Of a stretch of 64,000 bases of DNA, positions 12,654 to 60,571 are shown in pieces. The stretch is from a virus. Lineage: Duplodnaviria > Caudoviricetes. Both the position numbers and the translations under genes were made by a program. The stretch lies in IMG/VR virus record IMGVR_UViG_3300036802_000027, positions 918 to 64,917 of that record; one strand, written 5' to 3'. The first letter of the stretch is position 1. The number at the start of each line of letters is the position of its first letter. A model generated the notes under the pieces. That model was given only the letters and a program-made list of their open reading frames with translations. It had not been told where the DNA came from and did no database searches.

Positions 12654-13493
12654 CTATTCCGCTAGTAATTCCGGTGTTCTTGCTGGTGATATTGAATGTC
12701 GACAATTCGGGTGGAATATTTCACGCCGCGGAAGATCCCCGATGAACGGACAGTCTCCGGGAGCATCACGTATCAACTTGACTATCCGACCTTCCCACTT
12801 TGCACATGCATCTGATGCGCCATGACGAGATATTCTCCCGTAATAAGCCTTACGTCCGATAGCTTCGTTAATGGTCGCGTCCATATGTGTTCGTGACATC
12901 TTCGTACGTGATACCATTTCAACGTAGTTCTCTGGCTTCCAGCGACGTCCAGCCGCATCAATAATGCCGGTATCGACTGCGCTTCCTAACGTTGTTCTCA
13001 TCTGCACAAGGATCTCGCGACTTAACGTCTTTTGACCGTTAACTCCACGTGTCATATTCGCGCGAAACGAATCTGCCGTAGCCTGGCGAACTGCTTGTTT
13101 AACCCGGCGATCAACGTTTTGAGTTACAGCTAGTAAATCCGCATGAGTGTCTGCGACTGCTGCTGCTACGAATTCGTGATTGATTCGGCTGAACTTCGCA
13201 ATCTTACGCGCTTCTTCTATTGTGGGCACAACGCCGAGATCGACGATTGCGCGGATAACTCCATCTGTGGCCGCCTTCGTAACGTGTACTTCGACCCATT
13301 GCGCAGAGTCAGCGTTTAAACTTCGGAGTATCTTCGCCACCTCTGCGAGTGCGGCGTTAGCATTAGCGCGTGACATATCTGATAAATCCAAGCGTTGCAA
13401 CTCAGCAGATATCGCGATAATAGCAGATTTATACGCGTTGACGAAAAGTGATATGTCGCGGTTATAGCTCGGGTCGGTTAACGCTACTACCAT
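12654..13493 (-). CDS. minor capsid / head morphogenesis protein
   Basis: 'DAAGRRWKPENYVEMVSRT', 'IFHPNCRH' motifs; between portal and scaffold. Confidence 0.85.
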   Translation of the reverse strand: MVVALTDPSYNRDISLFVNAYKSAIIAISAELQRLDLSDMSRANANAALAEVAKILRSLNADSAQWVEVHVTKAATDGVIRAIVDLGVVPTIEEARKIAKFSRINHEFVAAAVADTHADLLAVTQNVDRRVKQAVRQATADSFRANMTRGVNGQKTLSREILVQMRTTLGSAVDTGIIDAAGRRWKPENYVEMVSRTKMSRTHMDATINEAIGRKAYYGRISRHGASDACAKWEGRIVKLIRDAPGDCPFIGDLPRREIFHPNCRHSISPARTPELLAE

Positions 13494-23027: not shown

Positions 23028-23655
23028 CCCCTCGGCACTGCACGAATGGTTCCGTCAACTCTCCGCCGTTTTCTCGCAGATTATACGTAACAACTTTCCC
23101 AGGCGCTATATCACGTTCATACCGCGCCGCCCTTTCCTCATTACGAATCTTAGCGCCAGCATCTACGCGCCAGTTTTCGTAATTTGTCCGACGTCTGCGC
23201 TTTGGTACGCGGTAGTCACGTCCGTCAGTGCCGACTTCCTCCGCAGCCTTAAGACTCGTTTCACGGTCGCGTCGGAGGTCTAATTGGCGTTGGCTAAAGA
23301 ACGGGTACTCGTTATGCTGTACCTTGTACGGATTTGGATCTGTTATTTCCTCGTCTAATACCGCGTCAGCCAATCGGTCAATCAGCGCCGTATTCAACGT
23401 TAATGATACCGGACGCTCACCAGTGCCACCTCGCTCAACCCACGCATCTATATTGCGTTGATTAACGTCAGCATGCGCCTTTACATAGTCGTCTGATATG
23501 CGTTGGATTAACGCCATACGCTCGGTGCGGTCAGCTATATCGTATTCGATACCGCCGTAACCAAAACGGATATTCGCGTCATTCTTGCGTCGTTTAATCG
23601 TGACTTCTAAATCCGATACCAATACCGCGAATAGTTCCGTATATGTTAACGTCAT
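23005..23655 (-). CDS. conserved phage hypothetical protein
   Basis: GGAGG RBS, translationally coupled to methyltransferase. Confidence 0.7.
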   Translation of the reverse strand: MTLTYTELFAVLVSDLEVTIKRRKNDANIRFGYGGIEYDIADRTERMALIQRISDDYVKAHADVNQRNIDAWVERGGTGERPVSLTLNTALIDRLADAVLDEEITDPNPYKVQHNEYPFFSQRQLDLRRDRETSLKAAEEVGTDGRDYRVPKRRRRTNYENWRVDAGAKIRNEERAARYERDIAPGKVVTYNLRENGGELTEPFVQCRGVSTQLHK

Positions 23656-28873: not shown

Positions 28874-29399
28874 TTACTTCGCCTCTCTTTCGCTAAAATA
28901 CGGAGTTAACCACGCGTCAACTTTAACAATTTCATCGCGGATGCTTAACGCTAGTTCGGATATCTCCGCCTGCGCACCGTTACCTGGACGTCTCTTCGCG
29001 TAGAAATCGAGCAGCGTCCGTAGGTTACCGGTCATAACGAGGTTACACGTAGCTGCGTTCGGGAGGACCATGCGTGCGTCTTCCGCAGGGACTCCGGCTT
29101 TACGGAGATCGTCATAGGTACGCTGAGCGGATTCCATTGCGTAAGTGAATATTTCCTCCTTCGCCATCTGACGCGACATTACCGAAGTACTTTGCGCCTT
29201 CCTTTTCGACGATTTCCGTCGGCTTGAGCGGAGAGTAACACGTTCGGATTGCGGTAAGGGCGACTGCTGCGCGGTGGTTGAGTCCGTCGACTACGTAAGG
29301 ATTACGCATTTGACGAGTGACTCCGACGTCCTTTTCGTAATCAAACTGCGAGATAAATTCGTTCGCTAACGCTGAGTGTGCAATTAATTTAACGTTCAA
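28874..29399 (-). pseudogene. thyX: flavin-dependent thymidylate synthase with internal deletion and frameshift
   Basis: N-terminus 'AVALTAIRTCYS' and C-terminus 'GVPAEDARMVLPNA...GNLRTLLDF...AQAEI' in different frames joined at ~29155; RHRx7SxR motif absent. Confidence 0.85.
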
Positions 29400-40329: not shown

Positions 40330-40757
40330 TACGCCACTTCCGTCGTATATAGTGCTCTATTCAACGCAATAGATAACTCGACCCAACGCTCAGATGCGCG
40401 TTCTTCTGACGCCCAATACTCGGAGAGTAATCGGTTTTCGAACATATAAACGCGTGGTATCTCACCCTCCGCTGCCCATACGCCAACGAAGTAATCAGCG
40501 TCGGATAAATCGTAGTTTGTTCCGTTACCTTTCTTCGCGTAGACAACGAGGTCGCCGCCACGGTCTGTACGCTGGCGAATCGTCTTAACTTGAATCTTCG
40601 CGTGATTACCGGTCATCGGATCGGTTGCGAGAATATCGTATGCTTCCGCCGTGCGGCTTTCGTGGATGCGCCAACCGTTCGCGAGCAACGCAACTTGTGC
40701 GATCAACTCCGAATAGGCGCCTGTAATTTCAGAAACGTGTGCCGTAAGAATCACCAC
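40329..40757 (-). CDS. PD-(D/E)XK endonuclease
   Basis: 'YDILA...KIQVKT' motif. Confidence 0.75.
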   Translation of the reverse strand: MVILTAHVSEITGAYSELIAQVALLANGWRIHESRTAEAYDILATDPMTGNHAKIQVKTIRQRTDRGGDLVVYAKKGNGTNYDLSDADYFVGVWAAEGEIPRVYMFENRLLSEYWASEERASERWVELSIALNRALYTTEVA

Positions 40758-40799: not shown

Positions 40800-41603
40800 T
40801 TAAAACGGCAGGTCTGCGTCTGTGATTGTGAATGGCGCGTCATCAACGGGGACAGCTTCGTCTGCAGGTGGCGGAGTTGCTGCGCTCGATCCGATGGATA
40901 AGCCAAGACGTCCAATATCAAAGCCTGCGATAACGAGATTCTTCGTTTGTTCCTCCTCATCCGCCTCAAACAAGAACCCTTCGAAGTTTTCGAAATCAAA
41001 CGGCGTTTCTCCAGTCTTAGCGAAATTCTTGCGTTCAGCTTCCGTCAGGTCTTCGTCCATATCGAGAATCGGAGATAGCGTAACGACCGTATCCGTAGAT
41101 TTACCTGACTTCGTTAGTTCAAACGCGAGTTTTTCAAGCTTCTTCTCGTATTTCGTAATCGTTGCGAAAACTCCCGCAGCTTGTTTCGGAGTTAAATCCA
41201 CAAATCCGTCTTCGCCAGTTTCGATATTTCCAAATCCTACAAGGTAACGCGGCTTTCCTTTTAATAGGTAAGCTTCGTTGCGGATCTTCTCCGCTTTGGC
41301 TTCGTCGCCAGCGTCTTTTGCGACTTTAGCGTCAGCGTACAACGAGTCTGCAGCGCGATCCCATACGGATGGATTCGCCGTAACGTACCCTTTCGCATTT
41401 CTTTCAGTAGATTGACTCGGTACAAACGTATTCACCTTTCCGTATACTCCGTAAGCGTAATACTCCGCGCTGTCGTCCTTCGACTTGATACGGATCTTAA
41501 TCGTCGTACCACTTGGAAACGCCACGTGTGCGCTCACCTTCGTATCTTTTTCCGCCTGTGCTGATTCGACTGCTGCTGCTCCGCGCTTTGTGAAAACTGA
41601 CAT
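40800..41603 (-). CDS. single-stranded DNA binding protein (T4 gp32-like architecture)
   Basis: acidic C-terminal tail ending 'DADLPF'; replication module; ATG 41603 after GAGGAG. Confidence 0.7.
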   Translation of the reverse strand: MSVFTKRGAAAVESAQAEKDTKVSAHVAFPSGTTIKIRIKSKDDSAEYYAYGVYGKVNTFVPSQSTERNAKGYVTANPSVWDRAADSLYADAKVAKDAGDEAKAEKIRNEAYLLKGKPRYLVGFGNIETGEDGFVDLTPKQAAGVFATITKYEKKLEKLAFELTKSGKSTDTVVTLSPILDMDEDLTEAERKNFAKTGETPFDFENFEGFLFEADEEEQTKNLVIAGFDIGRLGLSIGSSAATPPPADEAVPVDDAPFTITDADLPF

Positions 41604-48807: not shown

Positions 48808-49194
48808 ACCACTTCCTCCTTATAGTTAACGTAATCTAACACAAGATAACCTTGCGCTGCTTGCCGAAGGGTTCGGCGTAGCTGTATTCGGATAGTCGCA
48901 TGAGGTACGACTGTATTCCGTAACATTTTAAGCGGAGGTTTTCTTGCGCGGTGCTTTGGACGTTGGTTTCGACGGGCACCTATACCAGTGTTCGCGGTAT
49001 GTATTACGAGGTGGGTCGAGTGTTTCGAGGTATATCGGGTGTTGCGTGTATGTGTTCGTTTAACCTTATGACCCTATATTATATCCATATGCTTACAATG
49101 TCAATCATTAGGTTCAAATATATAATCAATTAGTATACTTTATAGGTTAAAGTGATATAATATTTAGGCAGACATTAATGAAGGAAGTGATATT

Positions 49195-55974: not shown

Positions 55975-56030
55975 CGTTTATGTACATGTAAACATTTCCG
56001 TAGACGTAAACGTAGTTGTTTACGTTTCTT
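55975..56030. promoter_or_regulatory. parA promoter with parS-like GTTTACGT repeats
   Basis: minus TTTACA-17-TATACT; ACGTAAAC 56004-56011 and GTTTACGT 56018-56025. Confidence 0.6.
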
Positions 56031-56109
56031 CGATTTCTGAGACATGTCGCGATAAGATATATGAGTTAACTATATTATTGTGAATTATTCAAACGGTGTA
56101 AATTTCACA

Positions 56110-56860
56110 ATAATCACTGCTGTATTGTATCTAGTTACTCCTTGTTGCTCGCTCCTATCTCCTGTACCTTGTCCTGTTTCACCACGGTTTAAAGATGCCG
56201 GCCTTTGTCCGGTTCCTCATCGTTCACGTCACGGAATGGATAACGAAATTCACGTTAACCACACCGTTCGGTTCACGCTGCGGCTGCTCTTACTACCTAC
56301 TACACATCGCCTTCAACGTTTTTAGGTTGTGGAATTTTTCTGTTGACTTTAAGGGTTTAATCGGCACGCTGGAATGGCTTGGCTTAGGAAACGGCTACAG
56401 ATAACCAACCCGCGCCTACACGAGTAAAAAGTATAGGCGCAAAGGTCGGGATATCGTACGTGACTCGCCGTATAAGGCAGGATGAGTGTTCCGTGTACCC
56501 ATGCTCGATATACGGTCACTACGACCGTTAGCGTCTTTTTACTCGTAAAGCTGATCCTACGAGCTGTGTTGCTTGTTATGACGCTACCTCCTCGCTTACG
56601 CGACTCAGACTACCACCAGACCGTTTATGGGCGTCCTCCCCTAGTCGTACTCGGCGTGAGCATGGTTACGCCTTGGTGAGTACACGCTGTCCGTCATGTT
56701 TCAACGATTTATGGCATCGGCTACAGCTAAACCTTTAGCATTTTTAACGTGTTCTCGCTGCTCTCCACGTTGGCGCGTCCTACTTTAGACAATAGGAAAC
56801 TAGACCCTCGGTACCTCGTTTTTTCGCGAGATCCGGAGTGGCGCCGTTTATTTAGTTTTA
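56110..56860 (-). ncRNA. candidate large (~750 nt) structured non-coding RNA
   Basis: no credible ORF; many helices, GNRA loop and G-U pairs consistent with minus-strand RNA; two long-range loop complementarities (12 bp and 8 bp); ends approximate. Confidence 0.6.
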
Positions 56861-56876
56861 GGTATGTAATTAAACG

Positions 56877-56925
56877 AAAAGGAGCCCCAATCCCATCCGC
56901 ATATTAACGAAGGAATCGAGGCTCC
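56877..56925 (-). terminator. intrinsic terminator
   Basis: 14-bp stem with three G-U pairs on minus strand followed by UUUUCGUUU. Confidence 0.75.
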
Positions 56926-57110
56926 ACATATATCATGACAATTCCCCATATAGCCTTGCCCTCTTGTGGCAAAAATGGTATGATGGGTACATCAAAGTCA
57001 TTGTTTAAGTGTCGCCTGTTTCTGTCCGTTCGTGCGGATAGTAAGCAGCATCGGGTTGGTAGCCCGAGTCGCCTTGAAACAGTGACTATTTTGTTTTCCA
57101 TTTAATTCTA
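56926..57110 (-). ncRNA. candidate ~240-nt structured RNA ending at the 56877 terminator
   Basis: multibranch CUGUUUC/GAAACAG helix enclosing two hairpins; sigma-A promoter TTGACG-18-TATATT at 57222-57193. Confidence 0.45.
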
Positions 57111-57332
57111 TGAATCTAGCATAACACAATCTACTGGTTCGTGGAAGTACGACATTTAACAACGTAATTCAAGGACGATTCCTTCCGATATTAATATACA
57201 TCAACGTATACGTGTACGTCAATACAATCGTAAATGTTTACGTAAATATCTACGCAGGAAAACCATTAATATTGTAGTATTCTTCGTAATTAGACGTAGC
57301 ATCTGACGGTTAATTTGTTTATAACTAAACGC

Positions 57333-57385
57333 AAAAAAGGCGCAGACTCAAACGGAATCACTTTCCGCGAGAACTGCGCTTTTTA
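57333..57385. terminator. bidirectional terminator
   Basis: GCGCAG...CTGCGC stem with A- and T-tracts on both sides. Confidence 0.7.
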
Positions 57386-57405
57386 TTTCATTATTTTTCA
57401 CTTGT

Positions 57406-58074
57406 CTACAGATTATTCTCCATTGGGATAGACGGTTCTGGTAATCTTTCATAGATATCGCGAGGTATGTAATATTTACGCGCCAAAGCGTAAGGGATTG
57501 TATAATCTCCAAACATATTGTCTAACGCCTTATCGTAGTCTATTCCTTCTGTTTGTTCCCTCCTCCAAGAAATATATACGCCATCATTCTCGCCCCCACC
57601 AACGTTATCCATTTTAGTACTAATACTCACCTCATAAACTTCTGGATTTTCAAACAGTATTTTTGAGTATGCTAAAAGGGAACCGCCCGACTTCCTAACA
57701 AAATCTTTTACATCTCCAAACATCCCTGGATTGACAGTTATATCAATGTACTTTCCTTTATCGTCCTCACTATATACGAATTTCCTAAAAGTAGTATCTG
57801 TTAACATAATTGACACTGCCGCATGTCCCGTGTCTTTTAGTGCTTCTCTAACGTTTTTCTCGTTAACCTCAGCTTTACTCCAATCAAATACAGGAGCATC
57901 TTCTTCTTTTGTCTCTTTTAGTCTTACAACACTCTCGACTACCGGTACAGTTACCTCCTCCTTAGTTATCTCTGGTTGGTCCTTGTTTACACTGTTAGAC
58001 GTTATAGTAGCCGCTTCCCCGCATCCCGAAGCCAGAACTGCGATTAGTATTAGTACAAAGCCTAATTTCCGCAT
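57406..58074 (-). CDS. lipoprotein (moron)
   Basis: lipobox 'LASGC' after signal peptide; own terminator. Confidence 0.8.
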   Translation of the reverse strand: MRKLGFVLILIAVLASGCGEAATITSNSVNKDQPEITKEEVTVPVVESVVRLKETKEEDAPVFDWSKAEVNEKNVREALKDTGHAAVSIMLTDTTFRKFVYSEDDKGKYIDITVNPGMFGDVKDFVRKSGGSLLAYSKILFENPEVYEVSISTKMDNVGGGENDGVYISWRREQTEGIDYDKALDNMFGDYTIPYALARKYYIPRDIYERLPEPSIPMENNL

Positions 58075-58244
58075 ATATGCATCCCCTATCGTTTTCCCTA
58101 AATTTTATCACTCTACTATATTACGCGTCTAGACGAAGAAAAGCGCCCGCTGACGAATCCCCACGTTTTATATACGTAGAAACTCGCCAACGGGCGCAGT
58201 TTTATTTCCGAATATCGTCTTTTAAACCTCACATAACATAATAC

Positions 58245-58273
58245 TTGCGTATTATATAATACCGCGGTATACT
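58245..58273 (+). promoter_or_regulatory. strong sigma-A promoter with two 12-bp palindromes
   Basis: TTGCGT-17-TATACT; TATTATATAATA (58250-58261) and ATACCGCGGTAT (58259-58270) between and over the boxes. Confidence 0.8.
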
Positions 58274-58317
58274 AAGTTTAGTTAAGAAATACCAACCAAA
58301 ACGAGGAGGAACAAACA

Positions 58318-58887
58318 ATGACAAACGTTATGAAAAGTGCTTGGGAAATCGCCTATGAAGGAGTTAAAAAATTCGGTGGGCAAGTTAAAGAGTACTTCGC
58401 AGATGCGTTGAGAATTGCTTGGTCCCTCTTCAAGAAAGGAGGAAAAGCATTGGAAACTAAAAAAGAAATTTTTGCAGCTAAAGTAAACCAGTACGTATCT
58501 GCCGCAAAGGGAATAAAGAAATACAAAAATGACACAAAGGAAGTTAATGCCGCTAATCTAATCGCGATGTTTAACGAAGAAAAAGCGGATGGATTAATAA
58601 AATTGATGAGCAAAAAAGCAGACGAGTTAGAATTGCGTGTGAAGCAACTACAAGCAACGGTCATTCGCACAAAACGCTTCGAAAAAATGTATCACCTCAT
58701 CACGCTTAAAAAAGATCAAAAAGTTGAAAGTCTAGTTAAAAAAGATGCAGAAGGATATCACGTAATATTCGGTTCTGGATTCTACCGCGTTATCGAAAAT
58801 GGAGTAGAGAAGTACATCCAAACAGTTCCAGGCAACACATCAATGAGAGAATTGGATAAAGAAACAGTTATTCGTTTCAAAAGATAA
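58318..58887 (+). CDS. hypothetical protein, candidate anti-defence protein
   Basis: GAGGAGG RBS; N-terminal 'VMKSAWEIAYEGVKKFGG..KEYFADALRIAW' helical module; AT-rich. Confidence 0.75.
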   Translation: MTNVMKSAWEIAYEGVKKFGGQVKEYFADALRIAWSLFKKGGKALETKKEIFAAKVNQYVSAAKGIKKYKNDTKEVNAANLIAMFNEEKADGLIKLMSKKADELELRVKQLQATVIRTKRFEKMYHLITLKKDQKVESLVKKDAEGYHVIFGSGFYRVIENGVEKYIQTVPGNTSMRELDKETVIRFKR

Positions 58888-58939
58888 TTAAACTTCCCGG
58901 GAGGGTTCGCCCTCCTATCATTTAAAGGATGTGAACAGT

Positions 58940-59470
58940 ATGAATAATGCCTTTGAACAAATGCGAGAAGGTGTGCAATGGGTACTGGACAATTGCACAT
59001 CCTATCAGGTTGCAAAAGATTTAAGGATCAACAACAGAACTATAAATCGTTATCAAAACGGAACAACCGAAACGTCAAAAATGGCGTTAGAAACCGCTGA
59101 GAAGTTGTATAGCTATTACTTAGAGGAGCTGAATAAGATGGATCGAGAAGAACTCTTTAGTAGGGCGTTAGCCGCCCTAAATAAAATAAGTGTAAGGCAT
59201 TTTGAAAAAGGAAAACCGAGTATAGAGGTAAAGTATATGAAGGACTTTAGCTTAAAGCCGATGACAATCTACGCTAGAGCGATCAAGGATGTCAGTCTTT
59301 ATGCCGATAAATTTGATGGTTATGATTTAACTTTGTGGGACCGCGCAACTAATTACATTGGATCTATGGACACTACTACTTTCAACGACGATCCACTAAG
59401 TCCTAAGTGTCTGATTTATTTCAGTAAAGAGATGACTTCTCTAAATACGTTTAAGGAGGATAACAAATGA
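58940..59470 (+). CDS. HTH (Aca-like) fused to Cas11c/Cas8c-C-terminus-like domain
   Basis: HTH 'SYQVAKDLRINNRTINRYQNG...LETAEKLY'; C-terminal 'LFSRALAALNK..SIEVKYMKDFSLKP'; internal GAGGAG-9nt-ATG at 59138. Confidence 0.6.
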   Translation: MNNAFEQMREGVQWVLDNCTSYQVAKDLRINNRTINRYQNGTTETSKMALETAEKLYSYYLEELNKMDREELFSRALAALNKISVRHFEKGKPSIEVKYMKDFSLKPMTIYARAIKDVSLYADKFDGYDLTLWDRATNYIGSMDTTTFNDDPLSPKCLIYFSKEMTSLNTFKEDNK

Positions 59471-59513
59471 ATAAAGGAACACCGTCAGCGTAAAGCTGAC
59501 GGTGTTCCTTTAT
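59471..59513. terminator. bidirectional terminator, perfect 19-bp inverted repeat
   Basis: ATAAAGGAACACCGTCAGC / GCTGACGGTGTTCCTTTAT with 5-nt loop. Confidence 0.9.
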
Positions 59514-59533
59514 CTATAAGAGACTTTAAGTTT

Positions 59534-59565
59534 ATTGTAATCCGCGCTGGAGCATGTCCAGCGAA
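59534..59565 (-). CRISPR. solitary type I-C-like CRISPR repeat unit (not an array)
   Basis: 32 nt TTCGCTGGACATGCTCCAGCGCGGATTACAAT: 2 nt + 7-bp CGC..GCG stem + 5-nt loop + 11-nt tail, same layout as I-C repeats (GTCGC...GCGTGGATTGAAAT). Confidence 0.6.
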
Positions 59566-59588
59566 TTGCGATACTAGCCAGCATAATT

Positions 59589-59617
59589 AATATACACTTT
59601 TAAGGTAAGATTGTAAA
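59589..59617 (-). promoter_or_regulatory. sigma-A promoter driving the repeat-containing small RNA
   Basis: TTTACA-17-TATATT; start expected near 59582. Confidence 0.7.
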
Positions 59618-59637
59618 TACAACAAGCGAACTCAGTT

Positions 59638-59871
59638 TTATTTCTTCGCTCCAACCGCCGATTTCCCGACGTCATACAATTTACACGCGGCTAGTCCCGT
59701 TATAATCCCCGTCATGATTCCGTCGGCCACTGTCGTATGCGGAATATATAGTAGCCCTGCAGCGAGCCCGATTACCATTGATATTAGCGGAAGATACTTC
59801 GCGGGCACGTATAACTTGAAGAACTCACCTAACGCGATAATCACCGCAACCACTACGCCTATTTCGTACAT
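59638..59871 (-). CDS. holin
   Basis: 77 aa, three hydrophobic segments, 'GIITGLAACKLYD', after endolysin. Confidence 0.8.
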   Translation of the reverse strand: MYEIGVVVAVIIALGEFFKLYVPAKYLPLISMVIGLAAGLLYIPHTTVADGIMTGIITGLAACKLYDVGKSAVGAKK

Positions 59872-59872
59872 A

Positions 59873-60571
59873 TTACTTCGCCCCCGTTTCGATATTTACC
59901 GTTTTAGTCTTCGCGTCCCACGTTACTTTCGCGCCGAGTGCTTCCGCCACTGCTCGCGCCGGTGTATACGTAGTCCCTGCGTCCAGCACTCCGTCCGCTA
60001 TCTTTTTACCATTAACGACTATGCATACTTTTACGTCTTTGTTCACGTCATTGACCGCCTTCTCCGCGTTATTTAACTTTGCTTGGACGGACGCCTTAAA
60101 CGCGATCCATCCCGTCCATTTACCGCCGTCATACATTAGTCGCGGACATATTTTACCGGACCAGTCGAAGTGTCTGCGCAGTCTATCCACGCCCCATCCG
60201 CGTTCCTTCAGCATTGATGCAACGAGAGTGGCCGCGTTATCCAGCGTCTTTGCGTAATTCCCACTTTCGCAGATTTCAATGCCAATTGACGTACGGTTAC
60301 CTGATTTCGCGGAGCTACCGTCGCCAGCGTGCCACGCGTTCTCATTCAGCGGAATACATTCGACTGCTTCGCGTTCATCTACTGCGATGTGGAACGATGC
60401 CTGGCGTAAGTTAGTCGGATTAGTTAACCACGTGCGTTCGTTAGCCGCGGTAGAGCTCGGATTTCCCGTATTGTGTATCGTAATTGTAGTCGCGGTCATC
60501 GCGTTAGCAGATCGTCTATTGCACGCTGTATTTCGTGGAATATAATCTTTACGGTAATTCATTCGCGCCAC
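59873..60571 (-). CDS. endolysin, N-acetylmuramoyl-L-alanine amidase (Amidase_2) with C-terminal copper-amine-oxidase-N-like domain
   Basis: 'ITIHNTGN', 'ASFHIAVD', 'AWHAGDG', 'SIGIEICE', 'HFDWSGKICP'. Confidence 0.95.
   Translation of the reverse strand: MARMNYRKDYIPRNTACNRRSANAMTATTITIHNTGNPSSTAANERTWLTNPTNLRQASFHIAVDEREAVECIPLNENAWHAGDGSSAKSGNRTSIGIEICESGNYAKTLDNAATLVASMLKERGWGVDRLRRHFDWSGKICPRLMYDGGKWTGWIAFKASVQAKLNNAEKAVNDVNKDVKVCIVVNGKKIADGVLDAGTTYTPARAVAEALGAKVTWDAKTKTVNIETGAK

Follow-up and report, generated by a model that had tools for sequence, protein, structure and literature searches.

A putative RNA mimic of type I-C crRNAs encoded convergently to a Cas11c-like gene in a Paenibacillus phage

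The soil phage analysed here carries, on the minus strand between its holin gene and a convergent gene for an HTH-Cas11c-like protein, a small stand-alone RNA gene whose sequence and surroundings make it probable that it is a functional mimic of a type I-C crRNA with an anti-CRISPR role. The original prediction of such a gene, acting as a decoy or as a CreR-like guide, is strongly supported: the mimic reading is backed by the Cas11c homologue next to it, by analogous units in four prophages, by the frequency of type I-C systems in the host clade and by spacer matches to the phage. We propose that the RNA is one half of a two-part module, of which the convergent HTH-Cas11c-like gene would be the other half.

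The viral record is complete (64.9 kb with terminal repeats), and the window, that is, the whole stretch of 64,000 nucleotides analysed in this work, covers almost all of it. The RNA gene lies in the 167-nt spacer between the stop of the holin gene (59638) and that of the convergent plus-strand gene (59470), and all of its elements were found on the minus strand at their predicted positions (Table 1). The promoter TTTACA-17-TATATT (59617-59589) is present as foreseen and agrees with the sigma-A consensus at 10/12 positions, a figure that describes a consensus match only; its -10 box ends 23 nt upstream of the 32-nt repeat-like unit, psiR. This unit (59565-59534) has the exact I-C repeat geometry that had been claimed for it: a perfect 7-bp stem (59563-59557 / 59551-59545), a 5-nt loop (59556-59552) and an 11-nt handle (59544-59534). 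By analogy with Cas5d biochemistry (PMC5965381), Cas5c would be expected to cut between 59545 and 59544.

Table 1. Coordinates of the features discussed (window positions, except where a locus is named)
Feature	Position	Strand	Remarks
First gene of the convergent two-gene unit, N-terminal Gp111-like module	58318..58887	+	PF07410, 57.5 bits
HTH + Cas11c-like gene (179 aa), candidate subunit-mimic anti-CRISPR	58931..59470	+	convergent to the RNA gene
Bidirectional intrinsic terminator	59470..59514	.	20-bp stem, TTTAC loop; common to the RNA gene and the convergent plus-strand operon
psiS, free spacer-like segment, 19 nt	59515..59533	-	AAACTTAAAGTCTCTTATA; from sequence and fold
psiR, type I-C repeat-like unit, 32 nt	59534..59565	-	TTCGCTGGA-CATGC-TCCAGCG-CGGATTACAAT
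Putative leader, about 17 nt	59566..59582	-	from promoter position and sequence; predicted start near 59582
Sigma-A-like promoter	59589..59617	-	-35 TTTACA 59617-59612, 17-nt spacer, -10 TATATT 59594-59589
Protospacer-like matches to DS2015 spacers	41034-41065, 12940-12974, 48854-48890, 59788-59820		5-8 mismatches
Protospacer-like matches to DS2015 spacers, continued	23506-23538, 23396-23429, 40534-40568, 29217-29252		5-8 mismatches
AAACTnAA site at cas5c start	L075, about 1527	-	
AAACTnAA site at cas5c start	L088, about 1533	-	
AAACTnAA site at cas5c start	L060, about 9411	-	
AAACTnAA site at cas5c start	L071, about 1603	+	

The part downstream of the repeat-like unit was only partly as anticipated. 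The GTCAGC-TTTAC-GCTGAC hairpin is present, not as an independent element but as the tip of the 20-bp terminator stem (59514-59470), which folds with -47 kcal/mol (z -7.35). Thus, the 33 nt that were counted as a segment do extend to the inner hairpin, but only the 19 nt of psiS are free; the end of the segment is paired in the terminator stem, as had been noticed, with 14 nt instead of 13. The idea that 33 nt and a small hairpin stand for a spacer and its 3' handle is therefore not supported, the hairpin being that of an ordinary terminator. A second repeat hidden in the terminator was considered and ruled out, the hairpin tail matching at 4/11 positions and the covariance model R2 (see below) finding nothing there. 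Neither this model nor the array-only model detected a second I-C unit within the 64-kb phage, so that the locus lacks the two or more repeats flanking a spacer that make a CRISPR array or mini-array. An Rfam scan of the region returned sub-threshold noise only. The sequencing runs listed as containing the region comprise one DNA run, probably that of the source soil metagenome, and no RNA run. The 4-kb stretch at 56001-60000, within which both plus-strand genes and the RNA gene lie, has a G+C content of 41.5%, compared with 45-50% elsewhere in the phage, as expected for an accessory island. On the plus strand (59453-59493), an AAGGAGG motif is followed, after 7 nt, by an ATG that shares bases with the TGA which ends the Cas11c-like gene; from this ATG, an 8-codon frame, MNKGTPSA, runs into the terminator stem. 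Most of this is probably incidental to the coding sequence, although a coupling between translation and the folding of the terminator would be conceivable.

[quoted passage not shown] Its start, TTCGC, and the start of its handle, CGGATT, are those of two host CreR repeats (L084:2361-2388 and L062:8630-8653). The change at handle positions 7-8 (GA to AC) is unlike every array repeat, CreR and sister unit examined, with the exception of a G-to-T change at position 7 in two CreRs, and it could mean weaker Cas binding or decay.

Units that combine a Watson-Crick stem of 7 bp with a loop of 5 nt and a tail matching at 8/11 positions or more, the features on which the prediction had been based, arose four times in 300 first-order Markov windows (0.013 per window). 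When the CGC/GCG stem base was asked for in addition, none of the 300 simulated windows had such a unit, and the chance rate within the 167-nt spacer alone is about 3e-5. The array-only covariance model, built from the 12 array repeats, gave psiR 9.4 bits (E=6.5). Model R2, which combines eight array repeats, three host CreR-type repeats and four prophage units and from which the window unit was left out, gave it 19.5 bits (E=0.0056), the top match in the window and 10 bits ahead of the next, and in comparable prophage DNA (50 kb) no score with this model exceeded 9.2 bits. A reversed control of about 750 Mb contained a single match to the generalised pattern TCGC-N13-GCG-N-GGATT-NN-AAT. By itself, the likeness to a repeat is thus beyond chance only moderately, and it is the context that settles the matter. 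We consider it very improbable that a hairpin in an AT-rich intergenic spacer resembles an I-C repeat by chance: the simulated rate per window, the score of the array-only model and the fact that promoter-like hexamers are no commoner here than in shuffles would be compatible with this, but the rate within the spacer, the stem base and the R2 score speak against it, as do the Cas11c homologue adjoining the unit and the clear I-C repeat-like units at the same position in sister loci.

psiR is a singleton in every collection scanned. Its stem variant, searched with a stem-fixed pattern, occurs nowhere else in IMG/VR, in 185,579 species genomes or in the JGI metagenomes; its handle variant, searched with a handle-fixed pattern in IMG/VR and 93 genomes, has no other occurrence in IMG/VR. 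Exact and degenerate scans for the unit gave either no match or two chance matches inside genes, and the four IMG/VR viral contigs with the most similar holins (74-95% identity) have no unit and a different sequence downstream of the holin. The unit might be looked upon as a decaying relic, a once-functional psiR and psiS of the sister-prophage kind that has drifted, with three handle changes and loss of its target, and now provides mere spacing and a terminator between convergent operons. The unique handle substitutions, the failure to find either target or relatives and the existence of three Cas11c-like loci that do without an RNA unit would all agree with decay. Drift should however lose base pairs, whereas here 7/7 are perfect with three wholly different inner pairs, and the promoter still matches at 10 of 12 consensus positions; a relic is therefore decidedly unlikely. 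Since all seven pairs are kept though three inner ones differ from every array repeat seen, the stem argues for selection on structure.

The neighbouring 179-aa protein is part of this context. Its N-terminal part is HTH-like (phrog_1529), all alignment partners over that part carrying HTH domains, while residues from about 65 to 178 match the C-termini of Paenibacillaceae ORFs of 590-630 aa that are Cas8c/Csd1 according to Pfam and NCBIfam. BLASTP gave E=1e-8 to 1e-6 against three Cas8c ORFs whose identity was confirmed by TIGR01863. The relatives L040, L041 and L043 pass the PF09709 cut-off at model positions 452-558, and the family profile matches Cas11c of D. vulgaris (7kha_K, residues 8-122 of 124, E=3.5e-4) as well as the Cas8c C-terminus. 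Judged by these matches, the C-terminal part of the protein is a Cas11c homologue, with the homology to the C-terminal small-subunit region of Cas8c/Csd1 that characterizes Cas11c. Its closest homologues, P0002-P0004, are 58-64% identical, and no homologue was found in IMG/VR with either single-protein or alignment queries. The order of domains is swapped within the family: the HTH is N-terminal and the Cas11c-like part C-terminal in the window protein and in P0002-P0004, and the Cas11c-like part comes first and an HTH_17/excisionase-type HTH last in L040, L041, L042, L043 and L046.

A sample of 401 Paenibacillaceae genomes yielded seven more Cas11c-like genes that stand alone, and in these the HTH is at the opposite end. 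Four of these loci carry I-C repeat-like units with promoter and terminator, always convergent to the Cas11c-like gene (one unit in G249, three in G407, one in G408 and two in G162), and none was seen at the other three (G439, G386 and G373); with the window, five of eight such loci thus have an RNA unit, and the orientation is convergent throughout. By sequence, a promoter of the form TTGAC(A/G)-17/18-TAnnnT closely precedes the first unit at every sister locus. In the G249 prophage, the full order of the window recurs: tail gene, lysin, RNA unit, then the convergent Cas11c-like and Gp111-like genes, the last of which (L050 9304-9876, 57% identity over 47 aa) also lies upstream of the Cas11c-like gene. 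The free segment is 18-27 nt long in the sister units and 17-23 nt in host CreR RNAs, compared with 19 nt in the window. Two of the sister units can be read from their segments. That of the G249 prophage is identical to the segment of the host CreR (17/17) and also matches, at 16/17 positions, a TTC-flanked site just upstream of cas5c; for G407, the segment of the prophage unit has 18/22 positions in common with that of the host CreR. Because their segments copy the CreR of their own host, the G249 and G407 units are Cracr-type mimics.

Several further features of these and other genomes were observed. The multi-unit mimic arrays of the G407 and G162 prophages lie at L051:10143-10277 (-) and L053:10414-10516 (-), one 'repeat' of G407 is shortened to 15 nt and lacks the hairpin, and one segment is nearly identical in the two prophages (TATGAGTTAGATATTTT / TACGAATTAGATATTTT) despite their different hosts. 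Genome G020 has an I-C repeat that is solitary yet canonical throughout and is provided with a terminator and a TTGACA promoter, at L057:8276-8307 (+), which corresponds to G020:C11:249276-249307; it is flanked by genes for small acidic proteins and an AP2-domain gene, and neither cas8c nor cas5c was found in that genome. The segment after this repeat (ATTCTTATAGTATTT) has TCTTATAG in common with the window RNA, and the terminator loop is TTTAC in both.

The holin of the phage matches Paenibacillus phages only, and its closest relatives lie in the genomes of Paenibacillus sp. DS2015 (95% identity), P. urinalis, P. tundrae and P. amylolyticus; on this evidence, the host clade is taken to be Paenibacillus. 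I-C repeats occur in 57/116 species genomes of the genus of DS2015 and cas5c in 35/116, figures that hold at the level of the genus. The I-C array of DS2015 (131 repeats) has 8/130 spacers that match the phage with 5-8 mismatches, compared with none in five shuffles, and a TTC PAM stands beside 6/8 of these protospacer-like matches. Type I-C immunity thus genuinely targets relatives of this phage. One of the matches lies inside the holin gene that adjoins the RNA unit.

Many Paenibacillus I-C loci also possess a CreR-like gene divergent from cas5c, in which a degenerate repeat with a short stem is followed by a segment of 17-23 nt and, in place of the second repeat, by a terminator. The segments begin with (A/G/T)TATA and match a TTC-flanked site over the cas5c promoter. 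Examples are L061:9047-9072 (-), with its target at L061:9148-9170, and L059:7116-7147 (-), and 13 more are present in L065-L089. The (A/G/T)TATA start is found in 18/19 solitary CreR-type units listed from the I-C loci of these genera; the lone unit lacking it (L062) may be an array remnant. psiS has no TATA-type start.

Targets of the segment next to a TTC PAM, cas promoters included, had been suggested as a check of the prediction, and the search brought no PAM-flanked target beyond chance. Among 38 I-C loci, psiS had no PAM-flanked 12-nt match with up to two mismatches beyond chance, and as TTC plus 20 nt with up to three mismatches it had none in 116 + 401 Paenibacillaceae genomes, a sample in which the true host may be missing. 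No PAM-flanked target of the segment was present in 610 Paenibacillaceae genomes, nor was one found elsewhere in the phage itself; 18-mer matches in the JGI metagenomes were at chance level, and IMG/VR gave one chance 18-mer without PAM. The first 8 nt of psiS (AAACTnAA) match TTC- or TTT-flanked sites on the antisense strand of the first cas5c codons in several loci (Table 1), and the motif also occurs twice in the leader of the DS2015 array (L021:10179-10256). There are seven such seed matches compared with a mean of 2.1 in composition-matched shuffles, 3% of which reach seven, so that they give a weak lead towards a guide function.

These searches bear on two alternatives. The RNA may be a viral copy of CreR that works in the manner of Cracr, its 19-nt segment, once Cas5c has processed the RNA, guiding the host Cascade by partial pairing to the promoter or 5' end of cas5c or to another defence promoter, so that cas expression would be shut off without recruitment of Cas3. 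The order psiR, 17-23 nt and terminator is exactly the architecture of the host CreR-like genes divergent from cas5c, the signature TTCGC...GCG-CGGATT is common to psiR and some CreR repeats, a V-A Cracr with the same architecture has been published, and Cracr arrays of type I-C are known as well (bioRxiv 10.1101/2024.10.29.618823). The segment matches of the G249 and G407 units and the weak 8-nt seed, with its sites in the leader of the DS2015 array and at the start codon of cas5c, point in the same direction. A Cracr segment should however have at least 9 PAM-proximal nt that match a host CreR/CreA segment or a PAM-flanked cas or toxin promoter; such a match was seen in the sister units of G249 and G407 but not in the window unit, whose own host may lie outside the sample, so that the genome searches are not decisive. 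The chance-level 18-mers and the missing TATA start also count against it, and we hold the Cracr mode to be possible rather than likely. The second alternative, an orphan guide or one-repeat mini-array targeting a competing phage or plasmid, has only a faint prospect of being correct. Viral mini-arrays in such a role are known (review PMC11656645), and the 33 nt to the inner hairpin are the commonest spacer length in DS2015, but 14/33 of these are locked in the 20-bp terminator stem and no target was seen in IMG/VR beyond the single 18-mer, in the metagenomes beyond chance or in the phage.

The decoy (Racr) mode is ranked first because no target appeared in anything searched and because the segment is without the (A/G/T)TATA start; as an assignment it is tentative and falls just short of an even call. 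Its own promoter and strong terminator support it, while both testable sister units are of the guide type (Cracr) and not plain decoys, and the array-only model score of psiR is not significant. As a decoy, the RNA might work as follows. The sigma-A-type promoter would drive an RNA of about 110 nt ending at the shared terminator. The Cas5c of the host would recognize the stem base (UCGC...GCG, the same as in real repeats) and the partly conserved 3' overhang, would bind and, by what is known of Cas5d, probably cut after the stem. Handle, 19-nt segment and terminator hairpin could then nucleate Cas5c, Cas7 and Cas8c into complexes that have no phage-targeting guide and compete with those on real crRNAs. 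Transcription, cleavage by Cas5c, loading of Cas proteins and the effect on immunity are all inferred here. It is also conceivable, but in our opinion unlikely, that RNA and HTH-Cas11c-like protein form one device that poisons type I-C Cascade with a crRNA look-alike and an altered small subunit. The phage RNA would in that case serve host Cas5c, Cas7 and Cas8c as the scaffold of a Cascade-like particle unable to lock the R-loop or to call Cas3, and perhaps tethered or regulated through the HTH. Support for such a device is genomic only: the convergent RNA at 5/8 Cas11c-like loci and the single terminator shared in the window.

The locus may be instructive in several respects. RNA anti-CRISPRs of the Racr and Cracr kinds and protein anti-CRISPRs derived from Cas proteins are each recent discoveries; in the window and four sister loci, the two types recur together against one CRISPR subtype, in a fixed arrangement, convergent and beside the lysis genes. 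The unit would also illustrate the extent to which mimics may diverge from the repeats of the host: with its different inner stem pairs and three handle changes, it could easily escape searches based on similarity, be it SRUFinder or BLAST with CreR queries. Moreover, the Paenibacillus I-C CreR-like self-regulators, with their psiR, psiS and terminator, offer a natural test system for decoy and guide modes.

Compared with known systems, the closest counterpart of the preferred decoy mode is RacrIC1, an inhibitor of I-C interference that is encoded next to AcrIC5 (Camara-Wilpert et al. 2023, PMC10651486). As in Racr, the window has a single phage-borne CRISPR-repeat look-alike outside any array, with a promoter just upstream (within 250 bp), a subtype that matches the host clade (I-C, at genus level) and, as with AcrIC5 and RacrIC1, an adjoining gene of anti-CRISPR type. 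The repeat-like unit is however far more diverged from host repeats than that of RacrIC1 (21/32 to the nearest repeat, with three changes in an otherwise invariant handle), the RNA gene forms a separate transcription unit that runs towards the protein gene rather than being bicistronic with it, the partner is a Cas11c homologue and not AcrIC5, and its inhibitory activity is a prediction. Cas5d reads the stem base and the 3' overhang (PMC5965381, PMC3973291).

Cracr RNAs are viral copies of CreR/CreA (Liu et al., bioRxiv 10.1101/2024.10.29.618823; host CreR: bioRxiv 10.1101/2023.03.10.532045). The window unit shares with the Paenibacillus I-C CreR-like genes and the published V-A Cracr the layout of psiR, short psiS and rho-independent terminator, located outside a CRISPR-Cas locus, and differs in that no defining match to a host CreR or cas promoter was found for its segment, which also lacks the TATA-type start of the local CreRs. 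The partner gene, for its part, recalls AcrIB4, an anti-CRISPR of Listeria elements similar to the Cas8b C-terminus and Cas11 (Katz et al., bioRxiv 10.1101/2023.06.24.545427), for which replacement of Cas11 has been proposed (bioRxiv 10.1101/2025.06.06.658234). Both are proteins of mobile elements and have homology to that part of Cascade's large subunit which represents the small subunit, but the window protein is of type I-C and not I-B, is fused to an HTH and belongs to a family repeatedly paired with a crRNA-mimic RNA, a pairing unmentioned in the paper of Katz et al. and in the Cracr paper. Thus, the RNA is most likely an anti-CRISPR of an already described kind, and what would be new is that RNA and protein recur together.
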